The position numbers and the translations under genes were made by a program. Below, piece by piece: positions 5,468 to 61,611 of a stretch of 64,000 bases of DNA (position 1 is the first letter of the stretch; the number at the start of each line of letters is the position of its first letter). This stretch comes from an uncultured Clostridia bacterium. GTDB taxonomy: Bacteria; Bacillota; Clostridia; Christensenellales; CAG-314. The stretch is taken from positions 65,285-129,284 of the forward strand of contig CANQYT010000001.1 in NCBI GenBank assembly GCA_947628135.1, given 5' to 3'. The notes beneath the pieces are model-generated. The model ran no database searches and was not told the DNA's origin. It was given only the letters and a program-made list of their open reading frames with translations.

Positions 5468-5544
5468 GGAGGCATAGCTCAGTCGGTTAGAGCGCTCGCT
5501 TCACATGCGAGAGGTCGTAGGTTCGAGTCCTACTGTCTCTACCA
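5468..5544 (+). tRNA. tRNA-Val (anticodon CAC), CCA encoded
   Basis: Hand-folded cloverleaf. The acceptor is GGAGGCA/TGTCTCT (two G-U pairs) and the D arm is GCTC-AGTCGGTTAG-AGC. The anticodon stem is CTCGC/GCGAG with loop TTCACAT, and the T arm is GTAGG-TTCGAGT-CCTAC. Discriminator A plus CCA. Confidence 0.85.
5524..5541 (+). repeat. att-like direct repeat, copy 1 (inside the tRNA-Val T-arm/acceptor 3' half)
   Basis: CGAGTCCTACTGTCTCTA is identical to 5848-5865. Confidence 0.7.
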
Positions 5545-5847
5545 AGCGGCGGCTTCGCATTTGAGTCGCAACAGAAAAGAGTCCGTGTAAGACGAACTCT
5601 TTTTCTATTGCTCCTTTTAACTCGCCGCCGCGGGTAGACACAGTACGGACAGTTCGAAATAATGTAGCGTCCGTTCGCCTCATTTACAGAGTTGGTGCAG
5701 TTGGTCATTTATTGCCTTCTATCCCTGCGGGCGTGGCATATGGGGTTTGCTTACGCAAAAGCCACGCCCTTGGGCATTCGGCTACCAACTGCACACCGTG
5801 CAGATTTGCTTCACGCCGAATGTGTTTACCCTGCGCTTCGCTTGGGA

Positions 5848-5865
5848 CGAGTCCTACTGTCTCTA
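5848..5865 (+). repeat. att-like direct repeat, copy 2 (orphan duplicate of the tRNA-Val 3' end)
   Basis: CGAGTCCTACTGTCTCTA. AT-rich DNA begins immediately to its right. Confidence 0.7.
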
Positions 5866-6031
5866 TTGTATTTCTTACATCAAAACACTATTTTTTGTCG
5901 GTTTTATTATTTGGTGGGATTTGATTTGTAGATATTGCATTTTTGAATAAATTATCAGTAATTTTCGGACGTAAAACAATCTTACCAACTCGCAGTGTTT
6001 ATTTCTGGAAACCGTGGTTTAATGGAGAACC

Positions 6032-6060
6032 TTGACAAAAGATAAATTATTTTGTAAAAT
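6032..6060 (+). promoter_or_regulatory. Sigma-A-type promoter
   Basis: TTGACA, a 17-nt spacer, then TAAAAT. Confidence 0.55.
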
Positions 6061-6106
6061 TTAATTATTATTTATAGTGAATCTATGAAGTTAAGGAGAC
6101 TATGCT

Positions 6107-6778
6107 ATGTCCGAACAAAAAGGCGTTATATACATATTGACGAATCCATCGTTCAAAGAGTATGTGAAAATAGGATATGCAGACGACATTAAGGCACGTC
6201 TTGCACAACTCAACAGAAGCGAATGTACTCCATTTGCGTTTCGTGTATACGCCACCTATGAAGTGGATACCAGACTTACCGATTTGAAGTTACATAATAT
6301 CATTGATAAACTCAATCCCAATTTGCGTGCTATTGACAATGTGGACGGCAAAAAACGGGTAAGAGAATTTTACGCAATGTCGGCTGAGGATGCTTATGCG
6401 TTGTTTGAAGCAATGGCTGAAATTCACGGTACGGAAAGCAAATTAAAAAAATTTGCAGCAACAGCAAAGCAAAAGATAGAAGAAGATACTGCTGCCGAAA
6501 TTGAAGATGAATCACGTGAAAGAATGACGCCGTTCAATTTTGCAATGGTGAATATTCCTGTCGGTTCTGTGATAGAGTACAGCAATTCGGCAAACGAAAA
6601 TTGCGGTAAAATGTGTGTTGTTGTAGACGATAGGCACGTAGAATACGATGGTAAGATTTGGACGCTTTCCGCCCTTGCAATGGAATTAACGGGTAGTAAA
6701 AGTCCGCTTGCCGGACCAAGATATTTTAAATATAATGGCGAATGGTTAAACGACATTCGTCGGCGAATGGGGAAGTAA
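6107..6778 (+). CDS. GIY-YIG-like T5orf172 (MUG113) domain protein with an uncharacterised C-terminal domain
   Basis: N-terminus GVIYILTNPSFKEYVKIGYADDIKARLAQLNRSECTPFAFRVYATYEV fits the T5orf172 pattern. AAGGAG RBS. Confidence 0.65.
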   Translation: MSEQKGVIYILTNPSFKEYVKIGYADDIKARLAQLNRSECTPFAFRVYATYEVDTRLTDLKLHNIIDKLNPNLRAIDNVDGKKRVREFYAMSAEDAYALFEAMAEIHGTESKLKKFAATAKQKIEEDTAAEIEDESRERMTPFNFAMVNIPVGSVIEYSNSANENCGKMCVVVDDRHVEYDGKIWTLSALAMELTGSKSPLAGPRYFKYNGEWLNDIRRRMGK

Positions 6779-7014
6779 TTCTATCGCAGTAAAGAAATTT
6801 TTTGTAAGTAGCACCGTTTATTGGAACAATCTGAATGGATAACGAATAACAGTTGATTTCAATTGGCTTACAAAAATTAACATTAATTTTGAACAAAATA
6901 AATAGTGTTACGCAGTAAGAATGTATCGGATAATTATTTGAAGATTACCAATGTATAATAGTTTATTTTCTTCTGTTTTGTACATAATTTAATTGCGGAA
7001 GTTATGCAAAAAAC

Positions 7015-7043
7015 TTGCACAAAAAATATTGCTATGCTATAAT
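7015..7043 (+). promoter_or_regulatory. Sigma-A-type promoter of the ATPase/RloB pair
   Basis: TTGCAC, a 17-nt spacer, then TATAAT. Confidence 0.6.
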
Positions 7044-7077
7044 ATATATTAATAATAAAAAAGGAGTAAGTAGAGAT

Positions 7078-8373
7078 ATGTTATTAAAAGTTCGTGTTGA
7101 CAATTTTTTGGTTTACTCTAATGACGTGGAATTATCTCTGATTGCAGATATGCGGATAAAAAGATTCGCAGATAACGTGTATGAGAATATGGGGTTTAAT
7201 GTGTTGAAATCCGTTTGTGTTTATGGCGCGAACAATTCTGGCAAGACTTGTCTTGTCCGTGCTATTAATTCTATAAAGAATGTGTTACTTGGATTAGTTG
7301 CTGAGGTGCCGTCAAATATTTTCAGAGAGGACAAAGTATGCTCATTTGGAATTACATTTATGGAAAGCGATAGAGTATTTGATTATGATTTTAAGTATGA
7401 TTCTGCGCTTTCAAATGGCTATAAAAGAGGCTTTGTCTATGAGTGTTTGAAAGAACTGACGATTGATGCGCATAAGAACACTTTAATTAAAGAATTGTTT
7501 ATACGAGATGCAACAAATGGCATTTATCGTTTTCAGGAAGATGATGAGTTAAGTAAAGTTTTAAGTCTTGTGTCAAACGATAATATTCTTATATATACGG
7601 TAAATGCTGCTATTCATTCCCAAATAGGCGAGTATAAAGAAATTTTACGTAAATTCGCCGATAGTATTATTTTACTTGACATGAATAATATACCCATAAA
7701 CAGAACCATTGATGTCTTGAAGAACAATGAAAAGATTAAAGAAAAAACAGTGGAGCTTATTTGTCTCGCAGATTTAGATATAGATGATTTCTTATATTAC
7801 GTAGATAACTCAAAGTCTGGAGCAATAGGTATCACCAATGAAGAAGAAGCACCTAATCCAAGAGAGGATGTTCTGAAATTGAAAGTAGCGATTGGAGATA
7901 TGCTGCGGTTAACATCAGTTCATAAGGGTAAGCCTGTTCAAAGTTTTTCTTTCGATTCGACGGGTACAAAAAAGATTGTTGCCATTGCAAGCTATATTAT
8001 TGAAGCATTGGAGACAGGTAAAACATTAGTAGTAGACGAGTTGGATAGCAGTTTGCATTTCAAACTCACGCGAGCTCTTGTCGCCTTATTTAACAATGAT
8101 TTAAATGTAAGAGCACAGTTAATCTTTACTGCGCACGATGCAACATTGTTAGATTGCAAAAAGTTATTCCGTAAGGATCAAATTTGGTTCGCATCCAAAG
8201 ATAAAGATAACGAATACCTATATTCATTAGCAGATTTTACTGCAAAGGAAAATGGTATTCGCGCTGAGACAAGATTAATGGACAAATATAACGCAGGTGT
8301 TCTTGGAGCAATTCCAGAGCCCGATTTCATTTCGGTTTTGTTGAATGAGTCCATATCGAATGGGGGAAATTGA
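7078..8373 (+). CDS. AAA_21/AAA_15-type (ABC-like) ATPase, AbiLi/RloA-like
   Basis: Walker A is GANNSGKTC. The Walker B/D-loop region is LVVDELDSSLHFKLTRALVALF...LIFTAHDATLLD. AAGGAG lies 8 nt before the ATG at 7078; the upstream extension in the ORF track overlaps the promoter. Confidence 0.7.
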   Translation: MLLKVRVDNFLVYSNDVELSLIADMRIKRFADNVYENMGFNVLKSVCVYGANNSGKTCLVRAINSIKNVLLGLVAEVPSNIFREDKVCSFGITFMESDRVFDYDFKYDSALSNGYKRGFVYECLKELTIDAHKNTLIKELFIRDATNGIYRFQEDDELSKVLSLVSNDNILIYTVNAAIHSQIGEYKEILRKFADSIILLDMNNIPINRTIDVLKNNEKIKEKTVELICLADLDIDDFLYYVDNSKSGAIGITNEEEAPNPREDVLKLKVAIGDMLRLTSVHKGKPVQSFSFDSTGTKKIVAIASYIIEALETGKTLVVDELDSSLHFKLTRALVALFNNDLNVRAQLIFTAHDATLLDCKKLFRKDQIWFASKDKDNEYLYSLADFTAKENGIRAETRLMDKYNAGVLGAIPEPDFISVLLNESISNGGN

Positions 8374-8374
8374 A

Positions 8375-9004
8375 ATGGCAAATAAATTACCTAGTGCTAA
8401 GAATAAAGATAGTCTTCTTATTGTGTGTGAGGGGGCCGAAGAATTTGATTATCTCAATCGTTTAAAAACCTGCGGCGTGTGGAGTAATAATTTTTCAGTC
8501 AAGCCGATAGATGCCGGATCAATAGACAAAATTTATGCAACCTACTCATACTACTACAAGACAAACAGTTACAGACTGATTGTGATTTTTTGCGATACCG
8601 AGAAGCACCCTTATGACAAATTTGTTGCAATGAAACAAAAGATAGACGGTTTTCACGGTAAATGTGTCGCAGATCAAATTGTATTCTTCGTTAATCCATG
8701 TACGTTGCAAGTAGTGTTGCTGCATTTTGGTGCAATCAAATTGACCTCTAACAGCAAATGTGATAATGCGGAAAAGGTGGAGCGTTTGACGGGTGTGAAA
8801 AATTATGACGCAACGGAACAACAACGCAGGTCCATTGTGAACAAAATTAATATGCAAAATTACACGAAAATGAAACAACGTTTGGCGCAGTTGAAAGATA
8901 CATATACCTATGTGCCAAGTAGTAACGTACTGCACTTATTTAAGGCATTGGAGATGGGCAATCCAAAGTGGCTCAGCGAAATGAATCAAAAAATTGAGAG
9001 GTAA
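8375..9004 (+). CDS. RloB-like (Toprim-like) protein, AbiLii-like
   Basis: The LLIVCEGAEEFDYLNRLK N-terminal motif is typical of the RloB family. The start is 1 nt after the ATPase stop, with a GGGGGA RBS. Confidence 0.6.
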   Translation: MANKLPSAKNKDSLLIVCEGAEEFDYLNRLKTCGVWSNNFSVKPIDAGSIDKIYATYSYYYKTNSYRLIVIFCDTEKHPYDKFVAMKQKIDGFHGKCVADQIVFFVNPCTLQVVLLHFGAIKLTSNSKCDNAEKVERLTGVKNYDATEQQRRSIVNKINMQNYTKMKQRLAQLKDTYTYVPSSNVLHLFKALEMGNPKWLSEMNQKIER

Positions 9005-9349
9005 ATTATGGAAAATATATTATATAGTTTGTCTTACGGAAAGTGCGATGATAAAAAAGAAAAGGACGGTCATAAGAGTAATCATTAGTATGTTAATTAT
9101 AAGATTAATGAGGAACATCAAGACTAGATTAGTTACTTAAAAATGCGTATTAGATGATGCTATAGACCAAGGTACAAGAATGATTGGATTAATTAGCGGT
9201 AATAGTATTGAGAATCTAGCATAGTACGATGGATGCCAAATCGAGAAAGGATGATAAAACCATCAAAATTTTTGGGATGGATTACGACGGCAAGACAGTG
9301 AAGATGACGAATCTCAAGACTTACGTTTAGAAAAATCGTTTTTATTTCA

Positions 9350-9998
9350 GTATGTAAATAATAGTGGATATAATGTGTTGACAAACATGTTAAAAAAGAC
9401 ATATTGATAGCGACGTTTTATTCTATAATCTTTAGATTCCAGAAAACTTGAAAATCGATTGGGTCCAACATGACAACATACTGTATTGTTGCATATCTTA
9501 AAAGTGAGTATAAGGTCGTACAGTCTGACGAATAAGATTCGTACCAATCCCGAACTTGCCGCATTTATCAAAGGTATAAACGATGAGAAGAAAATCAATC
9601 GAAGTTATTTCTACCATTCCGTGGATATTCTCTACGCCAATACCGTGAATGAGGCGCAGCAAATAATTGCCATTTACCAAGATAGGGGGTATCAATTTAT
9701 TAATCATACGCCATCTTTGTATTTCAATGCGAGATTGGATAACTTTGATACAACATTTGTTGCGCATAGTGTTATCGGACAGGAGTTTGATAATGTAATT
9801 GTTACGATGGATGACAATTTTTATTATGAGAAAGGGGAATTAAGGTCCGGGGAACACCCAAATTGGAATTATTTATATCACAAAATGCTGTTTCAGGAAA
9901 TAACGCGGGTTCGAGAAAAACTTGCGATCGTCGTAATTGGAAATCCCGATGTTTTTATGCACCTGCTTGAAATTAAAAATATTCGGACGTCGGGATAG
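9350..9998 (+). pseudogene. Decayed DUF2075/UvrD_C-like helicase gene (C-terminal remnant; frameshifted pieces upstream)
   Basis: 170-aa ORF with LTNKIRTNPELAAFIKG...SVIGQEFDNVIVTMDD...REKLAIVV (C-terminal helicase motifs). It has no Walker A or N-terminal half. Short out-of-frame fragments with stops lie at 9350-9485. Confidence 0.5.
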
Positions 9999-10416
9999 GG
10001 CTGTACGTTTGACGTGATGTTGATATAATACAATGCAATGACGAAATCGAGACGTTGATTGTAACGCCAAAATGTGAAAAAAACGTTTACTGCGCCCATT
10101 TGTGGCACAAATGAGAGTAAGTGCAACAGCGCTTTCTTTTTTATCGCTTTTAAGTCGGACGCATCCTTTCAGTGGCGACAGTAGGAAATTAAATTATGTG
10201 TCGTTTCGTTCACAGCGTTCGGGGCGAGTCGTAGTATGTTTAACAGTAATTGTTTTTGTTTGAGGAGTTTTTTTGAAGCATCAACTTTGTATTATCGTTC
10301 TGTAACATTTGCGAGAAATCGGTTATTTATTGTGAGTAGAGATTCGATATACGTAAACTAAGTAAAAGGATTGATTTTAACTAAAAAGTGCTTTATAATA
10401 TCTTTGAGGTTGGATT

Positions 10417-10959
10417 ATGTTGGATATAAATGTAAAATTTTTGGAAGAATACAAAAGTTTAGACAAGTTGTGCAAGGAAATGTTCGACAGCGATGAAGGT
10501 GTTTCGCGTTATATCTTAGAAATGGAATATTCTACTGATTGTCAACGATACAACAGCAGTTGGAAACAATTCTACGATCGTTTGAAGAAATTACGGTACT
10601 ACCGAAATAAACTTGCACACGACGTTGATTTATATACGGATTTATGCACCACAAACGATGTGGAGTGGCTTCAAAAATTTCATAATGATATACTGGAACA
10701 GCAAGATCCTCTTGCGGTTGTGAGAAAACAACGCGCCCAACCAAGCATTGTAAAAATGAGGACAAATATGTCTTCAAATAATACTGCTACTTCACATAAT
10801 TTTGCCGCTTGCAACAATCAAACATTAGTGCCCAAAACGTCTAAGTGGCAACAATTCAAACAAAAAATAAAAAAATTTTTTGTATCGGAAAAAACAGGTG
10901 AATTTTTGCTTGCTCGACAGGATAAAGTAAATTTTCAACTAAACATCTTGTTTGTATAA
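10417..10959 (+). CDS. Hypothetical protein with an Rx4H (HEPN-like) motif
   Basis: 180-aa ORF with a GAGG RBS. LKKLRYYRNKLAHDVD contains R-N-K-L-A-H. Confidence 0.5.
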   Translation: MLDINVKFLEEYKSLDKLCKEMFDSDEGVSRYILEMEYSTDCQRYNSSWKQFYDRLKKLRYYRNKLAHDVDLYTDLCTTNDVEWLQKFHNDILEQQDPLAVVRKQRAQPSIVKMRTNMSSNNTATSHNFAACNNQTLVPKTSKWQQFKQKIKKFFVSEKTGEFLLARQDKVNFQLNILFV

Positions 10960-11161
10960 AGTCCTTTGAGCAGTCGACCGTAGAATAAACTTTATATTAA
11001 AATTTTTTACATTAGTACTTCCCTGTATTATGATTTCAAAGTAGTTTCGTGCAGTGGAACAATTTGCACATAGAAACAAGAGAATAGTTTATGCAAATAC
11101 ACGGCTTTATGCTATTTGATTGGTTTATCAAATGCGATGTTTTACTTCTTCCTTTTTTATT

Positions 11162-11223
11162 GAAGGCACAGGTGCAAGCGCAACGGAAAGAGTACGCACA
11201 AAGTATACTCTTTTATATCGTTT
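11162..11223 (+). repeat. Direct repeat flanking the helicase gene, left copy
   Basis: GAAGGCACAGGTGCAAGCGCAACGGAAAGAGTACGCACAAAG..CTCTTTTAT matches 14751-14812, with a 1-nt indel and a few mismatches in the tail. Confidence 0.75.
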
Positions 11224-11335
11224 CTTGATAAATTTCTTTTCATATTCAGATAGTGAAAAAGAGGGAGGAGGTATGTAATTGCATAGAAGCGAAAAAGTGA
11301 TGAGGGCTTATCTTATAAGTTTGCCCAACAAATAT

Positions 11336-11364
11336 TTGAAAAATAAATATATTTGTGCTACAAT
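11336..11364 (+). promoter_or_regulatory. Sigma-A-type promoter (extended -10) of the helicase gene
   Basis: TTGAAA, a 17-nt spacer, then TGcTACAAT. Confidence 0.6.
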
Positions 11365-11392
11365 TTAACATAGAAGTTTTCTGAGGTAAATT

Positions 11393-14300
11393 ATGAGATT
11401 ATTTTCCAGACTTTTTGGCAAAAAAGATGATATAAATTTCCCAATAGAGTATAAGGAGGCTCTTGCTTTTAATCGGGAGTTTGAATCTTTATTGTCAGAA
11501 GATAAATTTTTGGCTCGTAGCGATTATAAAAATTTTATTAAACGATATAAGGAAATTTTTACTTTCTTCGATAATATTGTAAGGGCTAGAACACTCACAT
11601 ATTTCTGTAAACAAAACAAGATACAGGAAACAGCGGTTGTAAAATTTTTGAATTATTATAAGGATATATATGATTTACCTAAAGGTTCATCACTTATCGA
11701 TAAACATAATTCTGTTTACATAGATAGTCATTTGAAATCGGAAAAATTGTACTTGGATAAAATTTTATATGAAGTAGATCCCAAAATTTTACTTGACGAT
11801 GAACAACGCAAAGTAATTTTATCTGACGAAGATTACTCGCTTGTAATTGCAGGAGCAGGTGCGGGGAAAACTACTACGGTGGCTGCAAAAGTACGGTATT
11901 TGGTTGAAAAAAAACATATAGATCCACAAAAAATTCTTGTTATATCATTTACTAATAAAGCTGTTGGGGAATTAAAAGAACGTATCAATATCGGTCTTTC
12001 TATCCCATGTCCAATCACTACATTTCACAGTGCAGGATATGCCATTTTACGCAAACAAGATGATAACAAAAAGAAAATTGTTAATGAAGGTTTTTTGTAC
12101 AATTGTATAAATAATTATTTGAAAGGGAGCATTCTTGCTCAACCCGACATTGTAGATAAATTGATAATGTTTTTTGGTTCTTATTTTGATGCACCTTATG
12201 AGGGTGATAATATCAACTTGTTTTTTAACTATATAGCCAAAGCAGACTTCAGTACATTGAAAAGCAATGTTAATGAATACAATGTTCAAGTTATTGATAG
12301 ACGCACAAACAAAGCAACTACGATAACGAATGAGATTTTACGCTCAATTCAAGAAGTTAAAATTGCCAACTTTTTATATTTGAATCAAATAGATTACAAT
12401 TACGAAGAAATATATCCTTACCATATACTAAAAGCAAAAAAACCATACACTCCCGATTTTTGTATAAGACAAGGAAACAAAGTTGCTTATATAGAACACT
12501 TCGGTATTACCGAAAATGGTAGACACAACTTCTATTCAGTTGATGAACTCAATACATATAAGCAAGAAATTCTCGATAAAATTGCATTACATAAAAAGCA
12601 CGGAAGTACATTGATATATACATACTCTGAATACAATGATGGACGAGACTTTCTTGTCCATCTACGCGAGCAACTCGAAGCAAATGGTTTTATTCTCAAA
12701 AGTCGTCCGTCTGAAGAAGTATTTACCAAATTGGTCAATACCGAAGAAAATAAGTATATTTACAAATTTGTAAAGTTAATTTGTACATTTATTAATAATT
12801 TCAAAACTAACGGTTACACGCTTGATGATTTCTACCGCTTCGAACGAACGAATGCAAATGTCAGAACAAAGTTGTTTTTTGATATATGTAAAGCGTGTTA
12901 TTTGGAATATCAAAAAAGACTGTCAGAAGAAAATTCTATTGATTTTCAAGATATGATAAACGATTCTGCACGAATTTTGCGTGAAAAGCAAATAACCAAT
13001 GAACGACTTGATTTTGAATACATAATTGTTGACGAATATCAGGACATATCACGACAACGCTTCGATTTAACAAAAGAACTGTCAAATCTCTGTAATGCCA
13101 AAATTATCGCAGTGGGAGATGATTGGCAATCCATATATGCTTTTAGCGGATCAGATGTTTCACTATTCACTCATTTTTGCTCCATAATGGGATATGGACA
13201 AGAACTAAAAATTACCAAAACATATCGTAATGCACAAGAAGTAATAGATATTGCGGGAAATTTTGTCCAAAAAAATGAGGCGCAAATCAAAAAATCCTTG
13301 GTTTCTTCCAAACATATTCAAAAACCTGTTGTTATTTACACTTATAGTGAAGAATTTGATAGAAAAGAATTCGCTGGAAAGGGTGGAAAATACTTTCAAC
13401 TTGGGAAAAAGGTGGAAGATTTAATCGGCAAAATTTTAGAGCAAAATAGCCGAGAGTCTATAAGCGCGAACTCATCTATATTGTTGATAGGGCGTTATAA
13501 TTTTGATGCGCGCAACTTATGTTTTTCCAAAGATTTTGTTTATGACGAAGATAATGGTAAGATTTTCAGTAAAAAATATCCCAAAGCGAAGTTGGAATTT
13601 CTAACTGCTCACAGTTCAAAAGGTTTAGGATATGATAATGTTGTAATTATTAATGCGAGAAATGGAGTTTATGGTTTTCCTGCAAAGATAGATGATGACC
13701 CTGTAATGAAGTACGTTATTAATGACGACACATCTATTGAGTATGCGGAAGAAAGACGTCTGTTTTACGTTGCAATGACACGTACAAAAAACAGAGTTTT
13801 TATAGTAACACCGGAAAAACACCCGTCAGAATTTATTTTGGAATTGATAAAGGACTATCCCAACATAACCGTACATGGTGATTTGAAAAAGGAAAGCGAT
13901 ACTGATGTTGATACAATTAAAAAATGTCCCGTTTGTGGCTATCCTTTGCAACTCCGTTATAAAAAGGACTACGGTCTTCGTTTGTGGATGTGTACGAACG
14001 AACCCGAAATTTGCAATTTTATATCTAATGATTTGGCTGGTGGTGAGATGTCTGTGCAAAAATGTGATAGATGTAAAGACGGTTATCTGGTAGTCAAAAA
14101 ATCTTCTACTGGTGGTACAATATTAGGATGTACAAATTACAAACAAGACGGTACGGGTTGTGACAGGTGGTTAAATCACGAAACTTATAAACGATGGATA
14201 AAAAAGGAATTCGAAGAAGATTTAACTGTCGATAAACAAGCATACAATGAAGAAGTGGTTGTCGTAATGCCTAAAATAAAGGCTGATTTACAAAGCACAC

Positions 14301-14644
14301 ATAGTATTGATCGTAAAAAGGCAGAAGTGCATAAAGTAACATATAGTGAAAGATTTATTGAAAAGGACAGATTCCAAGTAGTTGCAGATGACGAAGGCAA
14401 CATCATTACCGATATGGAATTATTAGCAGAATTGCGGAGTCTGCGAGGAAAAATAATGAAAGAAAGCAATAAACCTGCATACACCATAATCAGCAATAAG
14501 GGGCTTGTTAGTCTTGCAACATATAAACCTGAAACACGAGAGGAATTTATTGCACTTTATGGCTTGGGCGAAACAACGTACATTACTTATGGATTAAGAT
14601 TCATTGAAGCCATCAAAGAATATTTTGCCAAACGTTCATCTTAA
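11393..14644 (+). CDS. HelD (helicase IV)/UvrD-like SF1 helicase with a PD-(D/E)xK-like insertion, two topoisomerase-type zinc ribbons and a C-terminal HRDC-like domain
   Basis: - Helicase core: Walker A AGAGAGKTTT; motif II IIVDEYQDIS; GDDWQSIYAFSG; TAHSSKGLGYDNVVI; RRLFYVAMTRTK.
- Nuclease-like insertion: YTPDFCI...AYIEHFG.
- Zinc ribbons: CPVCGYPL...WMCTN..CNF and CDRCKDGYL...LGCTNY...GC.
- HRDC-like tail: NKPAYTIISNKGLVSLATYKPETREEFIALYGLGE. Confidence 0.75.
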   Translation: MRLFSRLFGKKDDINFPIEYKEALAFNREFESLLSEDKFLARSDYKNFIKRYKEIFTFFDNIVRARTLTYFCKQNKIQETAVVKFLNYYKDIYDLPKGSSLIDKHNSVYIDSHLKSEKLYLDKILYEVDPKILLDDEQRKVILSDEDYSLVIAGAGAGKTTTVAAKVRYLVEKKHIDPQKILVISFTNKAVGELKERINIGLSIPCPITTFHSAGYAILRKQDDNKKKIVNEGFLYNCINNYLKGSILAQPDIVDKLIMFFGSYFDAPYEGDNINLFFNYIAKADFSTLKSNVNEYNVQVIDRRTNKATTITNEILRSIQEVKIANFLYLNQIDYNYEEIYPYHILKAKKPYTPDFCIRQGNKVAYIEHFGITENGRHNFYSVDELNTYKQEILDKIALHKKHGSTLIYTYSEYNDGRDFLVHLREQLEANGFILKSRPSEEVFTKLVNTEENKYIYKFVKLICTFINNFKTNGYTLDDFYRFERTNANVRTKLFFDICKACYLEYQKRLSEENSIDFQDMINDSARILREKQITNERLDFEYIIVDEYQDISRQRFDLTKELSNLCNAKIIAVGDDWQSIYAFSGSDVSLFTHFCSIMGYGQELKITKTYRNAQEVIDIAGNFVQKNEAQIKKSLVSSKHIQKPVVIYTYSEEFDRKEFAGKGGKYFQLGKKVEDLIGKILEQNSRESISANSSILLIGRYNFDARNLCFSKDFVYDEDNGKIFSKKYPKAKLEFLTAHSSKGLGYDNVVIINARNGVYGFPAKIDDDPVMKYVINDDTSIEYAEERRLFYVAMTRTKNRVFIVTPEKHPSEFILELIKDYPNITVHGDLKKESDTDVDTIKKCPVCGYPLQLRYKKDYGLRLWMCTNEPEICNFISNDLAGGEMSVQKCDRCKDGYLVVKKSSTGGTILGCTNYKQDGTGCDRWLNHETYKRWIKKEFEEDLTVDKQAYNEEVVVVMPKIKADLQSTHSIDRKKAEVHKVTYSERFIEKDRFQVVADDEGNIITDMELLAELRSLRGKIMKESNKPAYTIISNKGLVSLATYKPETREEFIALYGLGETTYITYGLRFIEAIKEYFAKRSS

Positions 14645-14750
14645 AAATGTTGTTCAGTTTGTTTAAGACAAACGCGCAGTCTATTGTTATTCTCAATGTT
14701 CGGATTTGGCATTGGTTTGCGTTCGGTCTAATGGCATTTCGATATGCGTC

Positions 14751-14812
14751 GAAGGCACAGGTGCAAGCGCAACGGAAAAGAGTACGCACAAAGCGCGCTC
14801 TTTTTATCTTTT
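14751..14812 (+). repeat. Direct repeat flanking the helicase gene, right copy
   Basis: See 11162-11223. Confidence 0.75.
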
Positions 14813-14921
14813 ACAGCGGAAGTTTTGTTCTGCCGACGTATTTTTATTGGGTTGAAAATTTGCAGTAAGTTTGAGCGGGGCTTTTATTTGTACTAATCGC
14901 GTTATCCCTCAATCATCGTAC

Positions 14922-14950
14922 GCAATTTCAACTACAATTTGTAGTTGTGT
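14922..14950 (+). repeat. Hairpin-containing direct repeat, copy 1
   Basis: GCAATTTCAACTACAATTTGTAGTTGTGT with AACTAC/GTAGTT stems. It is related to 15761-15790. Confidence 0.65.
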
Positions 14951-15135
14951 AGAGGCAATAGATTTTTTATAATATAATCAAAAATCAATTTGACTGTAGC
15001 GCAGCATCCCGTTGTGAGGTTCAAACGTGTGTTGAACAAATATTTCAATTTCCGTGCAACATCGAAAAACTTACAAAACGGCTAAATACGGCTTGCGAGT
15101 CAAAATGAAAAAATCGAAAAGGCGGCAGTAGCAAT

Positions 15136-15429
15136 ATGGGTTTCTTCGGCAGTTTGATATTTTCTGCAATTTACAAAGGTTTTGAATACGGTTTCAAAAA
15201 ACTCAAAACACGCAAAGCCACAGCAATACGTTTCGGCGTTCTCGGGGTGCTATGTGCCACCAATCTTATAGTAACGATAGTGCTTTGTTGTCAAATACCC
15301 GAGTTTTGGTGGCTTTTTCTCATTACGACGGGCGCAATATTTTGCATGTTTGTGTGGCGGTTTGTTTGGGATGGAATACTCCTTTACAAAAACGATTTCG
15401 ACGAGTCGCACGATGCGCCCGATCGGTAA
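15136..15429 (+). CDS. Small hypothetical membrane protein (97 aa, about 3 TM segments)
   Basis: ORF with hydrophobic segments. The RBS is weak. Confidence 0.4.
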   Translation: MGFFGSLIFSAIYKGFEYGFKKLKTRKATAIRFGVLGVLCATNLIVTIVLCCQIPEFWWLFLITTGAIFCMFVWRFVWDGILLYKNDFDESHDAPDR

Positions 15430-21768: not shown

Positions 21769-22392
21769 ATTCAGCCTTTGCCATCAAGCCTACCGACAAG
21801 TCGTATCGGGTATTCCACGCAAAAAGGCTTCACTTCGGACGCCGCAACAGAGTAAATAGCGCTCGTGCAATTGAACACAAAACGGCTTCGCGCGTCGCAA
21901 CTCGCCCTTGACATCACCGCTCGTGCAACCTGCACGAGCGATTCCGCTGTCGGGCGGTTGCTTCTACCACCCGTGCAAATATTCATTTGCACGGGGACCC
22001 GTTTTCCCCATCAAGTCTCCTTTGTCTACTTGATGGGGACCCCGTATGACTTGAACAACACATTGTTGTCAAATATAAATTAACTTGTGCGGCACGCTTG
22101 TTGCAGATTGTTTTGAGTTGCAACAGCACTCGCGTTATGGATAGTAAAGTCGAGTGCGGCGTCATTGTTGCAGATTATTTTGCGTTGGATTACCCTCGCT
22201 CTCGGTGTTACAATGTCCCCACCCGCCCGCCCCTATTCGCGGATATGAAGTTTGCAACTGTTGAGAAATTTATTTCGGGCACACGCGATAGACCTATTAT
22301 ATATGTAATATTTGCAAAACCGACTTTTTCGTCTGAAATCGGTTTTATTTTGTACAGTAAGCAACATTATCCTGTGCGCTTACGCGCCGCCG
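21769..22392 (+). repeat. Composite intergenic repeat, locus L1 (modules M, H, T and the first 19 nt of S)
   Basis: Blocks are shared with 24408-25258 (inverted), 57490-57815 and 61457-62189; see findings. Confidence 0.8.
22221..22351 (+). ncRNA. Candidate C-rich small RNA (copy in L1)
   Basis: TTGGAT, 18 nt, then TGtTACAAT at 22185-22214. The body begins CCCCACCCGCCCGCCCC. The terminator is AAAACCGA..TCGGTTTT plus a T-run at 22316-22351. Confidence 0.35.
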
Positions 22393-22626
22393 TCGGCGAA
22401 AATACGAAGGGTAATAAAAATCATATCAAACCGACTTGTCGGAGATAGGCATAAAGTAGCAAGGGACAATATATGAAAACTCACCGTCTGCGCAAGGCAA
22501 TTCGTATCCATTACGTACAACAGCCGTCAGGCTTGCAAAAACACGATTCCGTTCAACCGCAACGTGCGTTTTTCCCTCCTTGGTAAAGTAAAAGGCGCTG
22601 TCGGCGGGTAATTATTCCCCAACGGG

Positions 22627-23975: not shown

Positions 23976-24352
23976 TGGTGGAGGTGACGGGACTTGCACC
24001 CGTGTACCAACGCAAGACTATCCGACTTTCTTCGCATACAGTTTACTTTCGGTGTCGCAACGGCGAGATAGCAAACCAACTTGCCGTTGTCTGCGTCGAA
24101 AAAAATTTCAAGTCAAAGCGTTTCGGCGTCACCGCTGAGACTCTGTTTGCGTTGTCTTACACAGTATCCCCAACGACGCAACGGCGTTCGGGACTGCGTG
24201 CCGATGTAAATTAAGCGGCAAATGCCAATCTGTTAGATTGACGAGAAGTGCTATTATTAGCGTTTATTTTTGTTTTGCCTTGGTAACGCAGTGGACGCTG
24301 CGACGCGCTTATCGGATCTCCTTCAACGTCGGGCGAATCTGAAAACACCCCC
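23976..24352 (-). ncRNA. ssrA: tmRNA (SsrA)
   Basis: The 5' end GGGGGTGTTTTCAGATTCGCCCGACG pairs with the 3' end CACCTCCACCA. The T-arm is GGGTGCAAGTCCCGT. The tag ORF is GGC AAA ACA ... TTG GCA TTT GCC GCT TAA, giving (A)GKTKINANNSTSRQSNRLAFAA. Confidence 0.9.
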
Positions 24353-24407: not shown

Positions 24408-25258
24408 GCTCTGTAATAAATGTCGGGGTGTAAACAAGTCGGCAAATAGATAAGTCCGCTAAGTTTCAATCAAACTCCGTAAAGTTCGGGCGTGTACCGA
24501 ATCTTTGCGTCCTCCCCGGGGATGCCGGGGGTAGGGGAGACCCCGGCGAAAGGCTTTCAACAGTTCGCGCCGTGTAGGCGCAACTTCGTCGCGCCTTATG
24601 TTTGTCAGCACCAAGCACGCGCAAGCGTACTTGATACCGCTGACGCATAGGCACTCCTCTCCCACACAATTTTCGTAAACTCAAATTGTGCGTGTGCCCT
24701 ATTTCGACTGCGGCGGCGCGTAAGCGCACAGGATAATGTTACTTACTATATAAAAAGAAACCGACCTCAGCCGAGAGTGTCGGTTTTATATAAGTTGTCT
24801 ATTAAATTTTAATCGCGTATATCCGAAACAAATTTTCTCAACAGTTGTAAATATTTTCCCCGCGAATAGGGGTGGGCGGTCGGGGACATTGTAACACCGA
24901 GAGTGAGGGTGTTCGGTGAAAAATAATCTGTAACGAGGACGCCGCGAAAATTAAAATTGATTGATGTGGAAAAATAATATTTTTGATTGATTTTCTACAA
25001 AAAGCGCAAGGGTGTTCCAACGCAAAATAATCTGCAACAAGGGCATCGCACAAGTCAATTTACATTTAACAAAAATGTGCGATGCCCGAAGCGAAGCCGT
25101 TTTGCGTGGAATATCCGCCGCGCCGTCTGCTATATTATCAAAAAAAAAGACGCCGCACAATCATTTTTGTGCGGCGTCCGAAGTGAAGCCTTTTTGCGTG
25201 GAATACCCGATACGACTTGTGGTCGGATAAGTAGGCTTGTTGGCAAATGTTGGGGCGC
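24408..25258 (-). repeat. Composite intergenic repeat, locus L2 (modules M, M', T, S; inverted relative to L1/L3)
   Basis: The reverse complement aligns block by block with 61457-62189. Confidence 0.8.
24753..24880 (-). ncRNA. Candidate C-rich small RNA (copy in L2)
   Basis: TGtTACAAT -10 at 24888-24896 on the minus strand, with a poor -35. The body and terminator are near-identical to the L3 copy. Confidence 0.3.
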
Positions 25259-26952: not shown

Positions 26953-29598
26953 GTGGCAAAGAAATTTATTTATTTGTTCAGCGAAGGCAACGCCAATATG
27001 CGCGAGATCCTCGGCGGCAAGGGCGCGAATCTTGCGGAAATGACCAACATCGGTCTCCCCGTTCCGCAGGGCTTCACCATCTCTACGGAGGCTTGCACGC
27101 AGTACTACGAGGACGGCAAGCACATCAACGACGGCATAAAGAAGGATATTCTCACCTACATCGCCAAGTTGGAAAAAATCACCGGCAAAAAGTTCGGCGA
27201 TCTCAAAAACCCGTTGCTTGTTTCCGTGCGTTCCGGCGCTCGCGCCTCTATGCCCGGAATGATGGACACGATTCTCAACCTCGGTCTGAACGACGAAGTG
27301 GTGGAAGTGCTCGCAAAGCAAAGCGGCAACCCCCGTTGGGCGTGGGACTGTTACAGACGTTTCATACAGATGTTCAGCGACGTCGTAATGGAGGTCGGCA
27401 AAAAGTACTTCGAAGAACTTATCGACCAAATGAAGGCAAAGCGTCACATCACGTACGACGTTGAAATGACCGCCGACGACCTCAAAGAACTTGCGGGACA
27501 ATTCAAGGCGGAGTATCAAGCCAAGATAGGCAAGCCTTTCCCCCAAGACGCCAAGGAACAGTTGTTCGCCGCGGTGGAAGCGGTGTTCCGCAGCTGGGAC
27601 AACCCCCGCGCAAACGTGTACCGTATGGACCACGACATTCCGTACAGTTGGGGCACAGCCGTCAACGTACAGATGATGGCGTTCGGCAATATGGGCGACG
27701 ATTGCGGCACGGGCGTTGCGTTTACGCGTAACCCCGCCACGGGCGAAAAGGGTCTTATGGGCGAATTTTTGATGAACGCGCAAGGCGAAGACGTCGTTGC
27801 GGGCGTTCGCACCCCGATGCCCATCAGCCAAATGGCGGAAGTGCTGCCCGACGTTTACAAGCAATTCCTCGAAGTGTGCGACACTCTCGAACATCACTAC
27901 AAAGATATGCAGGATATGGAGTTTACCATCGAACGCGGCAAACTTTATATGCTTCAAACGCGCAACGGCAAGCGTACCGCCGCCGCCGCGATAAAGATCG
28001 CTTGCGACCTCATCGACGAGGGTATGATCACCGAAAAAGAAGCGCTTATGCAGATAGACGCCAAGTCTCTGGATATGCTTCTTCACCCCACGTTTGACGC
28101 CAAAGCGCTTGCCGAAGCGGACAAGAACAACGTTGTCGGCAAAGGTATTGCGGCAAGCCCCGGAGCGGCGGCAGGAACGGTGGTGTTTACCCCCGAAGAC
28201 GCCGTTATCCTCGGCAAGCAAAAGAAAAAGGTCATTTTGGTACGCTTGGAAACCAGCCCCGAAGACATCGAAGGTATGAAGTACGCGCAAGGTATCCTCA
28301 CCGTTCGCGGCGGACAAACTTCTCACGCCGCCGTTGTAGCGCGCGGAATGGGTACTTGCTGCGTTTCCGGTTGCGGCGACATCAAGATGGACGAAGCCAA
28401 CAAACAATTCGAATTGGGCGGAAAACTGTTCCGCGAAGGCGACCCCATCAGTTTGGACGGCTCTACGGGTAAAATCTACGACGTGATGATAAAGACCGTT
28501 CCCGCAGACCCCAACGGCGGCTATTTCGGACGCATAATGAAACTTGCCGACAAATACAAGGCTTTGGAAGTACGTACCAACGCCGACACTCCCGCCGACG
28601 CACAGCGCGCGTTTGAGTTGGGCGCGCAAGGTATCGGACTATGCCGTACCGAGCATATGTTCTTCGGCGAGGGACGTATAGACAAATTCCGCGAGATGAT
28701 TTGCAGCGAGACCGTCGAAGAGCGCGAAAAGGCGCTTGCCAAGATAGAGCCGTTGCAACAGTCTGACTTCGAAGGACTTATGGAAGCGCTTCGCGGTCAG
28801 CCCGTCATCATTCGTTTCCTCGACCCGCCCCTTCACGAATTTGTTCCCACCGAGGAAAAGGACATAGAGGAACTTGCAAAGGCGCAGCACAAGACCGTTG
28901 CGCAAATCAAGCAAATTTGCAACGCTCTGCACGAGTTTAACCCGATGATGGGACATCGCGGCTGCCGTCTTGCGGTAACCTATCCCGAAATCGCCGTTAT
29001 GCAGACCCGTGCGGTCATCAAGGCGGCGTTGAACGTTCAGAAGCGTCACCCCGATTGGCACGTCGTTCCCGAGATTATGATCCCGCTTGTAGGCGAAGTA
29101 AAAGAGTTGGCATACGTCAAAAAGACGGTGGTAGCCACTGCCGACAGCGTCATCAAGGAAAGCGGTGCAAAACTTACCTATCAGGTAGGCACGATGATCG
29201 AGATCCCGCGCGCTGCGCTTACCGCCGATGAAATTGCCAAGGAAGCGGAATTCTTCTCCTTCGGTACAAACGACCTCACGCAGATGACATTCGGTTTCAG
29301 CCGCGACGACGCAAGCAAATTCCTGCCCAGTTACTACGCCAGCAAGATTTACGAATCCGACCCGTTTGCCCGTTTGGACACGGTAGGCGTAGGCAAACTT
29401 ATGAAGATGGCGGTGGAACTCGGTCGCAGCACCCGTCCCGAACTGCAATGCGGTATATGCGGCGAACACGGCGGCGACCCCGCGAGCATCGAATTTGCCC
29501 ATAGCATCAACCTCACTTACGTTTCCTGCTCGCCCTACCGCGTACCCATCGCGCGTTTGGCGGCCGCGCAAGCGAACATCAAAAACCCCCGCAAATAA
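26953..29598 (+). CDS. ppdK: Pyruvate, phosphate dikinase
   Basis: 881 aa, GTG start after GGAGG. LGGKGANLAEMTNIGLPVPQGFTI, the catalytic-His region GGQTSHAAVVARGMG, and GLCRTEHMFF. Confidence 0.92.
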   Translation: MAKKFIYLFSEGNANMREILGGKGANLAEMTNIGLPVPQGFTISTEACTQYYEDGKHINDGIKKDILTYIAKLEKITGKKFGDLKNPLLVSVRSGARASMPGMMDTILNLGLNDEVVEVLAKQSGNPRWAWDCYRRFIQMFSDVVMEVGKKYFEELIDQMKAKRHITYDVEMTADDLKELAGQFKAEYQAKIGKPFPQDAKEQLFAAVEAVFRSWDNPRANVYRMDHDIPYSWGTAVNVQMMAFGNMGDDCGTGVAFTRNPATGEKGLMGEFLMNAQGEDVVAGVRTPMPISQMAEVLPDVYKQFLEVCDTLEHHYKDMQDMEFTIERGKLYMLQTRNGKRTAAAAIKIACDLIDEGMITEKEALMQIDAKSLDMLLHPTFDAKALAEADKNNVVGKGIAASPGAAAGTVVFTPEDAVILGKQKKKVILVRLETSPEDIEGMKYAQGILTVRGGQTSHAAVVARGMGTCCVSGCGDIKMDEANKQFELGGKLFREGDPISLDGSTGKIYDVMIKTVPADPNGGYFGRIMKLADKYKALEVRTNADTPADAQRAFELGAQGIGLCRTEHMFFGEGRIDKFREMICSETVEEREKALAKIEPLQQSDFEGLMEALRGQPVIIRFLDPPLHEFVPTEEKDIEELAKAQHKTVAQIKQICNALHEFNPMMGHRGCRLAVTYPEIAVMQTRAVIKAALNVQKRHPDWHVVPEIMIPLVGEVKELAYVKKTVVATADSVIKESGAKLTYQVGTMIEIPRAALTADEIAKEAEFFSFGTNDLTQMTFGFSRDDASKFLPSYYASKIYESDPFARLDTVGVGKLMKMAVELGRSTRPELQCGICGEHGGDPASIEFAHSINLTYVSCSPYRVPIARLAAAQANIKNPRK

Positions 29599-29618
29599 GG
29601 CAAATTCGCCAAATGGGG
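29563..29618 (+). repeat. 56-bp direct repeat, left copy (last 11 codons + stop of ppdK + 20 nt)
   Basis: 54/56 identical to 32437-32492. Confidence 0.9.
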
Positions 29619-32436: not shown

Positions 32437-32492
32437 GCCGCGCAAGCGAATATCAAAAACCCCCGCAAGTAAGGCAAATTCGCCAAATGGGG
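32437..32492 (+). repeat. 56-bp direct repeat, right copy
   Basis: It still reads AAQANIKNPRK-stop, with AAC>AAT and AAA>AAG. Confidence 0.9.
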
Positions 32493-54595: not shown

Positions 54596-54722
54596 TCCGA
54601 ATGAGAACAATTCGCACAGCACAACCGATTTCAAATATGCCCTGGTACAAAATCGATATTAAAATATTCGGTATAATTCACTGCGAAACCCGATTTTATA
54701 TGTGCGTTTGTACAAAATAAAA
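54596..54722 (+). repeat. Direct repeat unit 1 upstream of the surface-protein gene
   Basis: The core ACAGCACAAC.GATTTCAAATATGCCC..GTACAAAATC...TTCGGTATAATTCAC.GCGAAACCCGATTTTATAT.TGCGTTTGTAC is shared with 54881-55013. Confidence 0.8.
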
Positions 54723-54880: not shown

Positions 54881-55013
54881 TTGAGATGAAAATAATTCTT
54901 ACAGCACAACTCGATTTCAAATATGCCCTTGTACAAAATCAAACTTAAAACATTCGGTATAATTCACCGCGAAACCCGATTTTATATATGCGTTTGTACG
55001 AAAAAAAATAAAA
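54881..55013 (+). repeat. Direct repeat unit 2
   Basis: See unit 1. A third partial head (CTCCGAAATGAGAATGATAATTAC) lies at 54804-54830. Confidence 0.8.
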
Positions 55014-55239: not shown

Positions 55240-56175
55240 TTACGCTTTGCCCGCGCTGCCGAGTACGTCCGTAATTTTGTGTTTGACCATTTCTTTCATC
55301 ATAGTGCGGGCGTCGCCGAGGTATTGCCGCGGGTCGAAGTGAGAGGGGTATTCCGCAAAGTGCTTGCGCACGGCGGCGGTGAAGGCAACGCGCAGGTCGC
55401 TGTCGATGTTTATTTTGCAGACAGCCATTTTCGCCGCTTTTCTCAATTCGCTTTCGGGAATGCCTATCGCGTTGGGCATTTCTCCGCCGTATTGATTGAC
55501 GATAGCCACTTTGTCCTGCGGCACGCTGCTTGCGCCGTGCAAAACGATGGGGAAGTTGGGCAGTCTTTTGCCCACTTCTTCCAGAATGTCCAGCCGCAGT
55601 TTGGGGTCTTGACCGGGCTTGAATTTGTACGCGCCGTGACTTGTGCCGATAGCGATGGCAAGGCTGTCGATGCCCGTTCTCGCGGTAAATTCTTCCACCT
55701 CGTCGGGGCTGGTAAACAGCGCGTCGTCCGCGTCCACCTTGACGTCGTCCTCGATTCCCGCAAGTTTTCCCAGTTCCGCCTCCACGACAACGCCGTGCGC
55801 GTGGGCGTATTCCGTCACTTTACGCGTCAAAGCGATGTTTTCCTCCCACGGTTTGGAACTTGCGTCTATCATTACGGAGGTAAATCCGCCGTCGATAGAG
55901 GCTTTGCAAATGTCGAAATCCGCGCCGTGATCGAGATGCAGAGCGATGGGGATATCCGTCGTTTCCACGGCTGCTTCGACAAGGTGTTTCAGGTAGACGG
56001 GGTTGGCGTATTTGCGCGCGCCTGCCGACACTTGCAGGATAACGGGCGAACGGCATTCGTTGGCGGCTTCTACGATGGCTTGTACCATTTCCATATCGTT
56101 CACGTTGAAAGCGCCTATTGCGTATCCGCCTTTGTAGGCTTTTGCGAACATTTCTTTGGTTGTTACGAGTGGCAT
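55240..56175 (-). CDS. fba: Class II fructose-1,6-bisphosphate aldolase
   Basis: GGYAIGAFNVNDMEMVQAIVEAA, LHLDHG, GTSHGAYKF and LVLHGASS-like motifs. Confidence 0.9.
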   Translation of the reverse strand: MPLVTTKEMFAKAYKGGYAIGAFNVNDMEMVQAIVEAANECRSPVILQVSAGARKYANPVYLKHLVEAAVETTDIPIALHLDHGADFDICKASIDGGFTSVMIDASSKPWEENIALTRKVTEYAHAHGVVVEAELGKLAGIEDDVKVDADDALFTSPDEVEEFTARTGIDSLAIAIGTSHGAYKFKPGQDPKLRLDILEEVGKRLPNFPIVLHGASSVPQDKVAIVNQYGGEMPNAIGIPESELRKAAKMAVCKINIDSDLRVAFTAAVRKHFAEYPSHFDPRQYLGDARTMMKEMVKHKITDVLGSAGKA

Positions 56176-57489: not shown

Positions 57490-57815
57490 TGATTTACAGC
57501 AAGTCGTATCGGGTATTCGGTAAAAAAACTTCATTTCGGACGCCGCGCAAAATTTATTGTGCGGCGTCCTTTTTTGTCGATCAAACAGTGTACGGGGCGG
57601 CGGATATTCCACGAAAGCGGCTTCGCGCGTCGCAACTCGCCCTTGACGTCACCGCTCGTGCAACCGACGCGAGAGGTTTCTCGGTTGTTCCTTTCCCCGT
57701 CAAGTCTCCTTTGTCTGCTTGACGGGGACTGCATATTACTTGAACAGCACGTTTTTGTCAAACATAATTGACTTGTGCGTCACGCTTGTTGCATATGGTC
57801 TTGCGCCGAACAGCC
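57490..57815 (+). repeat. Composite intergenic repeat, locus L4 (modules M, M', H and a degenerate T head)
   Basis: It aligns with L1 21798-22130. Confidence 0.75.
57538..57575 (+). terminator. Rho-independent terminator of gap (part of module M)
   Basis: GGACGCCGCGCAA / TTGTGCGGCGTCC followed by TTTTTT. Confidence 0.75.
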
Positions 57816-61447: not shown

Positions 61448-61525
61448 ACCGCCGCTTCGACCTACTTTTCCGACCACACGTGCGACGTGTCGTATCGGGT
61501 ATTCCGCGCAAAAAGGCTTCGCTTC

Positions 61526-61572
61526 GTGTGCCGCACCTTGTTAGGTGCGGCACACTTGTTGCAGATTATTTT
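61526..61572 (+). terminator. Rho-independent terminator of the S51 peptidase gene (part of module M/T)
   Basis: GTGTGCCGCACC-ttgtta-GGTGCGGCACAC 12-bp stem followed by TTGTTGCAGATTATTTT. Confidence 0.65.
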
Positions 61573-61611
61573 GCGTTGGAACACCCTCACTCTCGGTGTT
61601 ACAATGTCCCC

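Follow-up and report, generated by a model that had tools for sequence, protein, structure and literature searches.

Why should a single helicase gene stand between two direct copies of a sequence of about 62 bp? The question is raised by a 64-kb stretch of contig CANQYT010000001.1 from an uncultured rabbit-gut bacterium of the class Clostridia (the whole stretch is called the window here), in which the only long open reading frame (ORF) between the two copies, at 11393-14644, encodes a superfamily 1A (SF1A) helicase of 1083 amino acids. This gene and all island features described below lie on the plus strand. The original prediction saw in the repeat a private gene end, duplicated when the helicase gene was inserted, and in the arrangement a pattern rather than a single case; overall, that interpretation is partly supported. 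The anatomy itself is sound. The first copy, T1, occupies 11162-11224 (GAAGGCACAGGTGCAAGCGCAACGGAAA-GAGTACGCACAAAGTATACTCTTTTATATCGTTT), and the core of the second, T2, occupies 14751-14812 (GAAGGCACAGGTGCAAGCGCAACGGAAAAGAGTACGCACAAAGCGCGCTCTTTT-TATCTTTT). Read from the left, their alignment consists of 28 identical nucleotides, a 1-nt indel, 17 more identical nucleotides, TATA in T1 versus CGCG in T2, CTCTTTT, a second 1-nt indel, and (T)ATC. The direct repeat is 55-63 nt long, with 56 of 63 columns matching, and the only 4-base block of difference sits in the 3' arm of a hairpin. None of 2000 shuffles reached the local alignment score of 87, and the 28-mer occurs twice in the window, up to three mismatches being allowed, where no occurrence is expected. 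No resemblance between the sequences flanking T1 and T2 was found beyond the ends of the repeat. Both copies fold as a terminator (A-run, hairpin, T-run), as had been predicted, and what they enclose is indeed just the helicase gene and a promoter-like site (11336-11364: TTGAAA, 17 nt, TACAAT, extended -10 TG), which is kept upstream of the homologues in three other loci (L037, L043, and L044). No recombinase or integrase was found between or beside the repeats, elsewhere in the island to which they belong, or among 10 other window ORFs tested.

Several trivial explanations were discarded. Doubling of a k-mer overlap at an assembly join is rejected because T1 differs from T2 and because independent assemblies (SPAdes and Logan) concur; both copies are present in ten contigs of the same strain from independent ENA and Logan assemblies. 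A protein-coding repeat was rejected on reading the sequence: although all three plus-strand frames are open, the indel puts T1 and T2 out of frame with each other. The two ends of the cassette share no inverted repeat, and a candidate motif common to them, TTGGTTTATCA, was not significant (370-382 of 2000 shuffles).

The two copies are not equivalent. T2 reaches about 18 nt further 5' (14733-14750), where it has an additional small hairpin, and its full extent of 14733-14812 is a complete long-form trailer with hairpin 1 at 14737-14753, the 28-mer at 14751-14778, and the terminator hairpin at 14776-14805. T1 is a long-form trailer truncated on its 5' side at GAAGG; it is without hairpin 1, and its terminator hairpin is at 11187-11214. 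On the 3' side, T1 passes into the upstream region of the helicase gene, as the trailer also does in L044, and T2 passes into a flank that is common to strains without the helicase.

What the repeat is became clear from its other occurrences. A scan of 185,579 species genomes for its 22-mer gave five exact copies, in two other metagenome-assembled genomes (MAGs) from rabbit, and all five are part of one and the same module. Its order is a tRNA 3' end (true or a pseudo-copy), a spacer of about 20 nt, a small hairpin (TTCGAC-NNNN-GTCGAA), the highly conserved 22-28-mer of the long form (GAAGGCACAGGTGCAAGCGCAAC), a terminator hairpin, and CTTTTTCTATTGCTCC. In these two related MAGs the exact copies adjoin tRNA-Val (the orthologous locus), tRNA-Pro(ggg), tRNA-Pro(cgg), or pseudo-3'-ends, and at one further locus two module copies lie 363 nt apart. 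In four other rabbit metagenomes the depth of the module is 20-30 times that of the helicase locus, with about 20 contigs (X5) whose upstream ends resemble tRNA 3' ends, and contigs of the source sample hold 3-5 further copies. T2 matches the modules of L023-L026 at 83-90%. Among module copies the terminator stem varies in both arms, as judged by eye, and the 22-mer is invariant; hairpin 1 is integral to the module in every other genome, and at the helicase it occurs only ahead of T2. T1 and T2 are thus copies of a dispersed tRNA-trailer terminator module of a rabbit-gut Clostridia clade, and because the module is present at so many loci, an outcome that the original prediction had itself named as refuting it, the repeat is not the private duplication that it had been taken for. 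Neither Rfam, which at gathering and E-value thresholds returned only tRNA and tmRNA, nor the curated protein libraries contain this module with its invariant 22-mer, and it is undescribed.

In the window, a hidden Markov model (HMM) of the module detects three copies, namely T2, T1, and a short form at 5567-5616, all of which are inside an island of about 9 kb anchored at a tRNA-Val(cac) gene (5468-5544; ARAGORN; Rfam score 70.7 bits). The guanine-plus-cytosine (GC) content falls from ~50% to 34% directly after this gene and stays low until about 14800, and the 3' end of tRNA-Val is exactly where contigs of other samples break off. The short form, Tv (5545-5616; CGCAACAGAAAAGAGT...CTCTTTTTCTATTGCTCC), follows the tRNA gene directly and is a trailer/terminator in which 5567-5616 resembles, in diverged form, the 3' half of the repeat (E=4.8e-8 in nhmmer against the module HMM; terminator fold of -21.6 kcal/mol). 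Three successive island genes each end in a module: a fragment of an Nhi-like gene in T0, a DUF6548 gene in T1, and the helicase gene in T2. No trailer module was found after the T5orf172 or AbiLii genes of the same island.

The island is a patchwork, and in it the helicase gene is a strain-variable accessory cassette. Conspecific strains (L027-L036) have a fuller Nhi-like gene, T0, 65 nt, and then the right flank, which aligns with the window at 88-95% from 14801 onward. The block missing from them is 10143-14800, comprising the DUF6548 gene, T1, the helicase gene, and T2, so that neither copy of the repeat is kept; its left breakpoint is in the T-run of T0 (10142) and its right one at 14801 in T2, both at trailer T-runs. 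Only the Nhi gene follows tRNA-Val in L031, and only a T5orf172 gene does so in X17. The orthologous tRNA-Val locus is without the helicase in three related lineages (L024, L045, and L050); in the related species represented by L050 the site is nearly empty, and in that of L045 it holds a different islet of 3.6 kb flanked by copies of the tRNA 3' end. A joint in X7 (5823->14747) that looked like an empty site proved to be another member of the module family, in which the module comes after the 3' end of another tRNA. The exact helicase gene was found only in the samples of one study and always in the identical context. Its GC content is 32.9%, compared with ~50% for the genome, and because of this difference and of its restriction to the strain of one sample, the view of the gene as a single-gene, horizontally acquired unit is supported.

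An opposite view would be that the helicase gene is an old, vertically inherited resident of the tRNA-Val site, lost in some strains, and that the second trailer arose by local duplication or gene conversion. It is favored by L037, a related species in which the order of genes on the left is unchanged (Radical_SAM, two Chromate_transp genes, HTH, tRNA-Val) and where a helicase of 84% protein identity (also in L042) starts 186 nt after the true tRNA-Val; the nucleotide identity of 79% is near that of the flanks (67-83%). In addition, 45 identical nucleotides beside divergent arms would fit a short conversion tract, and L027 may retain a remnant of the helicase 3' untranslated region, although at 24 of 2000 shuffles this is suggestive and was not relied upon. 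An old residence is nevertheless difficult to reconcile with a GC content of 33-36% against 42-50% in the flanks in all five contexts compared, with the missing gene at the three orthologous loci, with distant homologs that stand singly among housekeeping genes (L054 and L055), and with the three different trailer types that precede the helicase in three close lineages. We consider it very unlikely.

Those three lineages are instructive. In L044 the helicase (96% protein identity) comes after a pseudo-tRNA-Val 3' end with a short-form trailer, and in L043, another strain (88%), it comes after a pseudo-3'-end with a type-A trailer. Close homologs are always behind a tRNA-Val 3' end plus trailer, and the repeat therefore mirrors the architecture of the island and is not a helicase-specific footprint. 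L043 also shows that bracketing recurs with a second trailer variant, as the type-A trailer is present again about 190 nt after the helicase stop codon, giving a repeat of 49-53 nt (0 of 2000 shuffles). If the helicase and one trailer copy are subtracted from L043, what is left is the order found in L050, i.e., 3' end, type-A trailer, and mini-unit, the last being a short non-coding element described below. In L043 the helicase interrupts this resident order and has the type-A trailer to its left and to its right, and we count this in favor of a crossover within the trailer, which is set out further on.

The tRNA 3' ends themselves could suggest a different history, one of tandem accretion. 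In this scheme an integrase acting in trans and specific for the tRNA 3' end would add islets that bring their own trailers; T1 and T2 would stand beside eroded att cores, and the repeat would be a mere passenger. The tRNA-Val 3' end (GAGTCCTACTGTCTCTA) does occur a second time in the window, and only there (5525-5541 and 5849-5865); a pseudo-3'-end copy is directly upstream of the trailer preceding the helicase in both L043 and L044, and the 3.6-kb islet of L045 likewise lies between 3'-end copies. A related species has, directly left of its helicase gene, an element (L040, 547-4596; L041, 689-3650) that encodes three large serine recombinases and occupies the tRNA-Val 3' end; this end must therefore be an active integration site, and the tycheposon islands of Prochlorococcus have a like grammar (bioRxiv 10.1101/2020.12.28.424599). 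Beside T1 or T2, however, there is no copy of the tRNA 3' end, even with up to three mismatches allowed, and a crossover in the tRNA 3'-end core is for that reason disfavored. The downstream trailer of L043 also is without such a copy, no integrase was found in the island or among the tested ORFs, and the module and the mini-unit core have no exact match in the phage sequences of IMG/VR. T1, moreover, is cut exactly at GAAGG, and both copies look hybrid. Accretion is judged unlikely as the origin of the bracket.

Brackets are not confined to trailers. In L055, from the human gut (Hadza), a helicase of 70% identity lies within a 38-nt direct repeat (5945-5983 and 9262-9300; 37 of 38 identical, 0 of 500 shuffles) that covers the ribosome-binding site and the opening 8 codons of a DNA-alkylation-repair gene lying downstream; the insert hardly exceeds the ORF, and no same-locus relative was present among 80 metagenome loci. 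In the window itself, a second gene, next to ppdK (29705-32413), encodes a 902-amino acid superfamily 1B (SF1B) helicase of the IGHMBP2/ProA/Hhe type with a GC content of 34%, the flanks having 55% and 51%. It stands within a 56-nt direct repeat (29563-29618 and 32437-32492; 54 of 56 identical) made up of the last 36 nt of ppdK and 20 nt downstream. Unlike the UvrD-type gene, it is found in all four other rabbit-gut runs or samples. Bracketing, which had been proposed as a pattern from the helicase and ppdK sites, does recur, at L043, L055, and ppdK, but it does not characterize the helicase family, as none of ~68 testable metagenome loci with 55-78% homologs of the helicase is bracketed. Short virome scaffolds labeled 'Bacteriophage sp.' that carry a 52% homolog were tried as mini-circles and rejected, being linear and having no terminal or flanking repeat.

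Taken at face value, four brackets of like size (55-63 nt of type-C trailer in the window, 49-53 nt of type-A trailer in L043, 38 nt in L055, and 56 nt at ppdK), differing in local sequence and all around low-GC helicase genes, would be what true target-site duplication leaves behind, if some machinery acting in trans inserted single-gene cassettes of SF1 helicases by staggered cuts 40-60 bp apart. No bacterial transposase is known to give duplications so long. Terminal inverted repeats were not found, the helicase being the only ORF between the copies there is no transposase, and the absence of brackets at the ~68 distant-homolog loci is a further difficulty. The differences between T1 and T2 are not scattered but form one 4-base block, at a place where the family varies. 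Hairpin 1 is present only before T2, so that the right end of the cassette would have had to carry this small hairpin by coincidence, and target-site duplication is accordingly disfavored; for the bracket in the window it appears very unlikely.

The alternative that we prefer, tentatively and at somewhat less than an even chance, is that the bracket arose by recombination within the module itself. A looped-out or circular piece consisting of the helicase gene and one complete module would have crossed over once with a resident module, somewhere within 11162-11206, and the product would be two hybrid copies. T1 would then combine the left side of the resident with the right side of the incoming module, running on into the helicase promoter, and T2 would combine the left side of the incoming module, hairpin 1 included, with the right side of the resident, running on into the chromosomal flank. 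A single crossover is proposed because T1 and T2 are asymmetric, because 45 nt are identical apart from one indel, and because the 4-base block falls where members of the family vary. The same two copies could excise the helicase again by looping out. Deletion between T1 and T2 would be expected to leave the 3' region of the DUF6548 gene, GAAGG...CACAAAG, and CGCGCTCTTTTTATCTTTTACAGCGG; the junction of the corresponding circle would read helicase 3' untranslated region, hairpin 1, GAAGG...CACAAAG, TATACTCTTTTATATCG, and helicase promoter. The modules would, in addition, end transcription behind each cassette. We infer the crossover, the enzyme responsible (RecA or a recombinase acting in trans), and any present-day mobility from the arrangement of the sequences.

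There are several points that weigh against recombination within the module. A genome with one module and no helicase, which the original prediction would have led one to expect among relatives, was not found, nor was any contig joining a single module to the right flank; the helicase-less strains differ instead by the whole of 10143-14800. The 65 nt that those strains have between T0 and the flank are unrelated, and their arrangement is not the simple product of a deletion between T0 and T2 or between T1 and T2. In a related species (L037) the helicase is found at this locus too and is not bracketed there, and vertical descent is therefore possible. The 38-nt repeat of L055 and the 56-nt repeat at ppdK are unique local sequences, and a multi-copy module leaves their origin unexplained. 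Neither circle nor deletion junctions were present in the assembled contigs of the source runs, which, however, drop rare variants. Finally, for RecA-dependent exchange, 45 identical nucleotides are close to the minimum.

On account of the ppdK site and L055, a more general form of single-gene insertion, with local repeats of 38-63 bp, can still be entertained. In its boldest version, single low-GC SF1 helicase genes of gut Firmicutes would be selfish, recombinase-free cassettes bracketed by repeats of their conserved landing sites, 38-63 bp in length. They could loop out as mini-circles and re-enter any genome with which a short landing pad is shared, whether in a tRNA trailer, at the 3' end of ppdK, or where a repair gene begins; the encoded helicase would possibly promote its own exchange; and the trailer module and the two-hairpin mini-unit together would be a new tRNA-anchored system of cassette capture. 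We regard this as quite unlikely.

The helicase gene had been described as HelD-like, which is only loosely right. The best NCBIfam model is indeed DNA helicase IV (NF008276), but the score of 274.2 bits is half the cut-off of 543, the best stretch being residues 453-654, and the nearest solved relatives are PcrA and UvrD (PcrA 1pjr, E=7e-34). With these and Rep the protein shares the SF1A motor core and the Pfam domains UvrD-helicase (PF00580, E=1e-47) and UvrD_C (PF13361, E=2e-14). Unlike HelD, it adds a topoisomerase I-type zinc ribbon (Zn_ribbon_Top1) and a C-terminal HRDC domain, and no HelD N-terminal domain was detected; residues 1-133 match no Pfam family. PADLOC gave only generic GajB-type matches. 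The Gabija partner GajA (ATPase-TOPRIM) is not adjacent, the neighbors of the helicase being the DUF6548 gene and a 97-amino acid ORF, and the sole ATPase of the island is AbiLi, which is paired with AbiLii 3 kb upstream. Over 5000 homologs of ~1080 amino acids with the same architecture are present in gut Clostridia and Bacteroidales, where sources name them only 'UvrD-helicase domain-containing protein'. Helicases of this kind, with a UvrD core, zinc ribbon, and HRDC domain, form a large separate family, missing from the curated protein libraries, whose GC content is always below that of the surrounding DNA. In L037 (11247-11996), and also in L040 and L042, a low-GC ORF of 249 amino acids with no Pfam match begins 3 nt after the helicase stop codon; it may be a partner gene of the helicase that is missing in the window.

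The remaining parts of the island bear out its composite nature. After Tv comes a mini-unit (5617-5865), which ends in the 17-nt copy of the tRNA-Val 3' end at 5849-5865, an att-like pseudo-3'-end. Such mini-units are non-coding, about 250 nt long, and stand singly or in tandem beside tRNA genes; relatives next to tRNA genes, in tandem, are found in L025 (2716-3281), L026 (1246-1500), L031 (236-517), and L035 (119-403). The core, at about 5727-5830, forms two hairpins side by side, and across 6 copies 3 compensatory pairs occur. Rfam has nothing for the mini-unit or for the large non-coding stretch. The left part of the low-GC island (5866-10086), delimited by its GC profile and annotated with Pfam and PADLOC, contains a PDC-S57 (T5orf172) gene (6107-6778, E=2.5e-97), AbiLi (7078-8373), AbiLii (8375-9004), and a fragment of an Nhi/AbiO-like helicase gene (9486-9998) corresponding to its C-terminal third only (PADLOC profile positions 316-468). 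PDC-S57 and the AbiL pair mark this as a defense island beside tRNA-Val. The Nhi-like gene is fuller in L027-type strains, where it comprises two ORFs of 378 and 117 amino acids; homology to those strains begins abruptly at 9510, and the PDC-S57 and AbiL genes have thus replaced the 5' part of Nhi. T0 (10087-10146), with a terminator fold, is a diverged type-A trailer after the Nhi fragment and resembles the type-A trailers behind the true tRNA-Val in L045 and L050. It is followed by what by eye looks like a fragment of a mini-unit akin to those of L024 and L050 (10147-10243; weak evidence), window 10119-10211 matching L050 6293-6390 at 74%; the fragment may end in a decayed copy of the tRNA 3' end. 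The DUF6548 gene (10417-10959; Pfam PF20185, E=4e-39) lies between T0 and T1. A hairpin-1-like sequence, TTCGATATACGT, about 65 nt upstream of its start codon raised the idea that T1 had been split by this gene, but at 54 of 2000 shuffles it was suggestive and not relied upon. The right flank shared with the helicase-less strains begins at 14813-15429 and includes the 97-amino acid ORF (15136-15429); its homologs border the tRNA-Val locus in L045 and L050. After the last trailer of these two loci (L050, 6530-6700; L045, 9290-9400), a leader resembles a SAM-I riboswitch by eye (GAGGGACAGCCCC...GGTGCTAA), and it is absent from the window.

Other repeats were noted elsewhere in the window. Families of hairpin-rich, non-coding repeats, 82-91% alike and not in Rfam, are at 21794-22400, 57614-57767, 61483-62089, 24654-24699, and 25076-25209, near a tmRNA gene (23976-24352, minus strand); in part they match a non-coding stretch of ~500 nt after the trailer module at the tRNA-Val of L024 (window 21893-22047 and L024 4795-4947, 75%). 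A 97-nt direct repeat, 91% identical and with a spacing of 286 nt (54626-54722 and 54912-55008), lies downstream of a fructose-bisphosphate aldolase gene (55240-56175, minus strand).

If recombination within the module is correct, defense-type genes of uncultured gut Clostridia are shuffled at tRNA-linked islands by means of a short, conserved terminator module, without a resident integrase or transposase; the shuffling of regulatory cassettes, described so far for T4-type phages, would extend to bacterial chromosomes, and the strain-to-strain variation of recombinase-less islands would be explained. Whatever its origin, the locus illustrates that a repeat around a gene has to be compared with related genomes before it is read as the footprint of an insertion. 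It also brings to light a two-hairpin mini-unit, tied to copies of tRNA 3' ends, that is absent from Rfam and the curated protein libraries.

Three known systems invite comparison. Integron cassettes likewise form arrays of one-gene units, each with a related structured site behind it, and are likewise strain-variable through cassette-like gain and loss. Here, however, there is neither an integron integrase nor attI; the module has no GTT triplet or GTTRRRY core and no R''/L''-L'/R' palindrome, the cassettes have promoters of their own, and the anchor is a tRNA gene. The second system is the tRNA-linked islands of the accretion type, exemplified by the Asn-tDNA islands of Klebsiella (PMC4891358) and by the tycheposon islands, in which older elements are displaced inward by newer ones and tRNA fragments occur throughout (bioRxiv 10.1101/2020.12.28.424599). 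In common with these, the island starts at a tRNA 3' end and has scattered partial tRNA copies, strain-specific cargo with defense genes among it, and integrase-less remnants. It differs in that the helicase is bracketed by the trailer downstream of the tRNA and not by the tRNA 3'-end core, in that no integrase was found, and in that its smallest units, of about 200-360 nt, are non-coding and have a conserved two-hairpin core. The third system, and the closest precedent for a crossover within the module, is the promoter-early stem-loop (PeSL) cassettes of T4-type phages, in which short, conserved, terminator-containing motifs lie between non-essential single genes of hyperplastic regions (Arbiol et al. 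2010, PMC2839356; Comeau et al. 2014, PMC4122927); recombination between neighboring motifs shuffles the genes singly, and mini-circles consist of one gene plus one motif (PMC2839356). As with PeSLs, a terminator motif recurs among single genes of a variable region (Tv, T0, T1, and T2 in the 9-kb island), genes are gained, lost, and replaced between close relatives, and no dedicated recombinase appears to be involved. The setting, of course, is a bacterial chromosome beside a tRNA gene and not a phage; the repeat consists of the terminator and the 22-28-mer and does not include a promoter, which belongs to the cassette; and the module doubles as a tRNA trailer. Mini-circles, known from PeSLs, are here a proposal.

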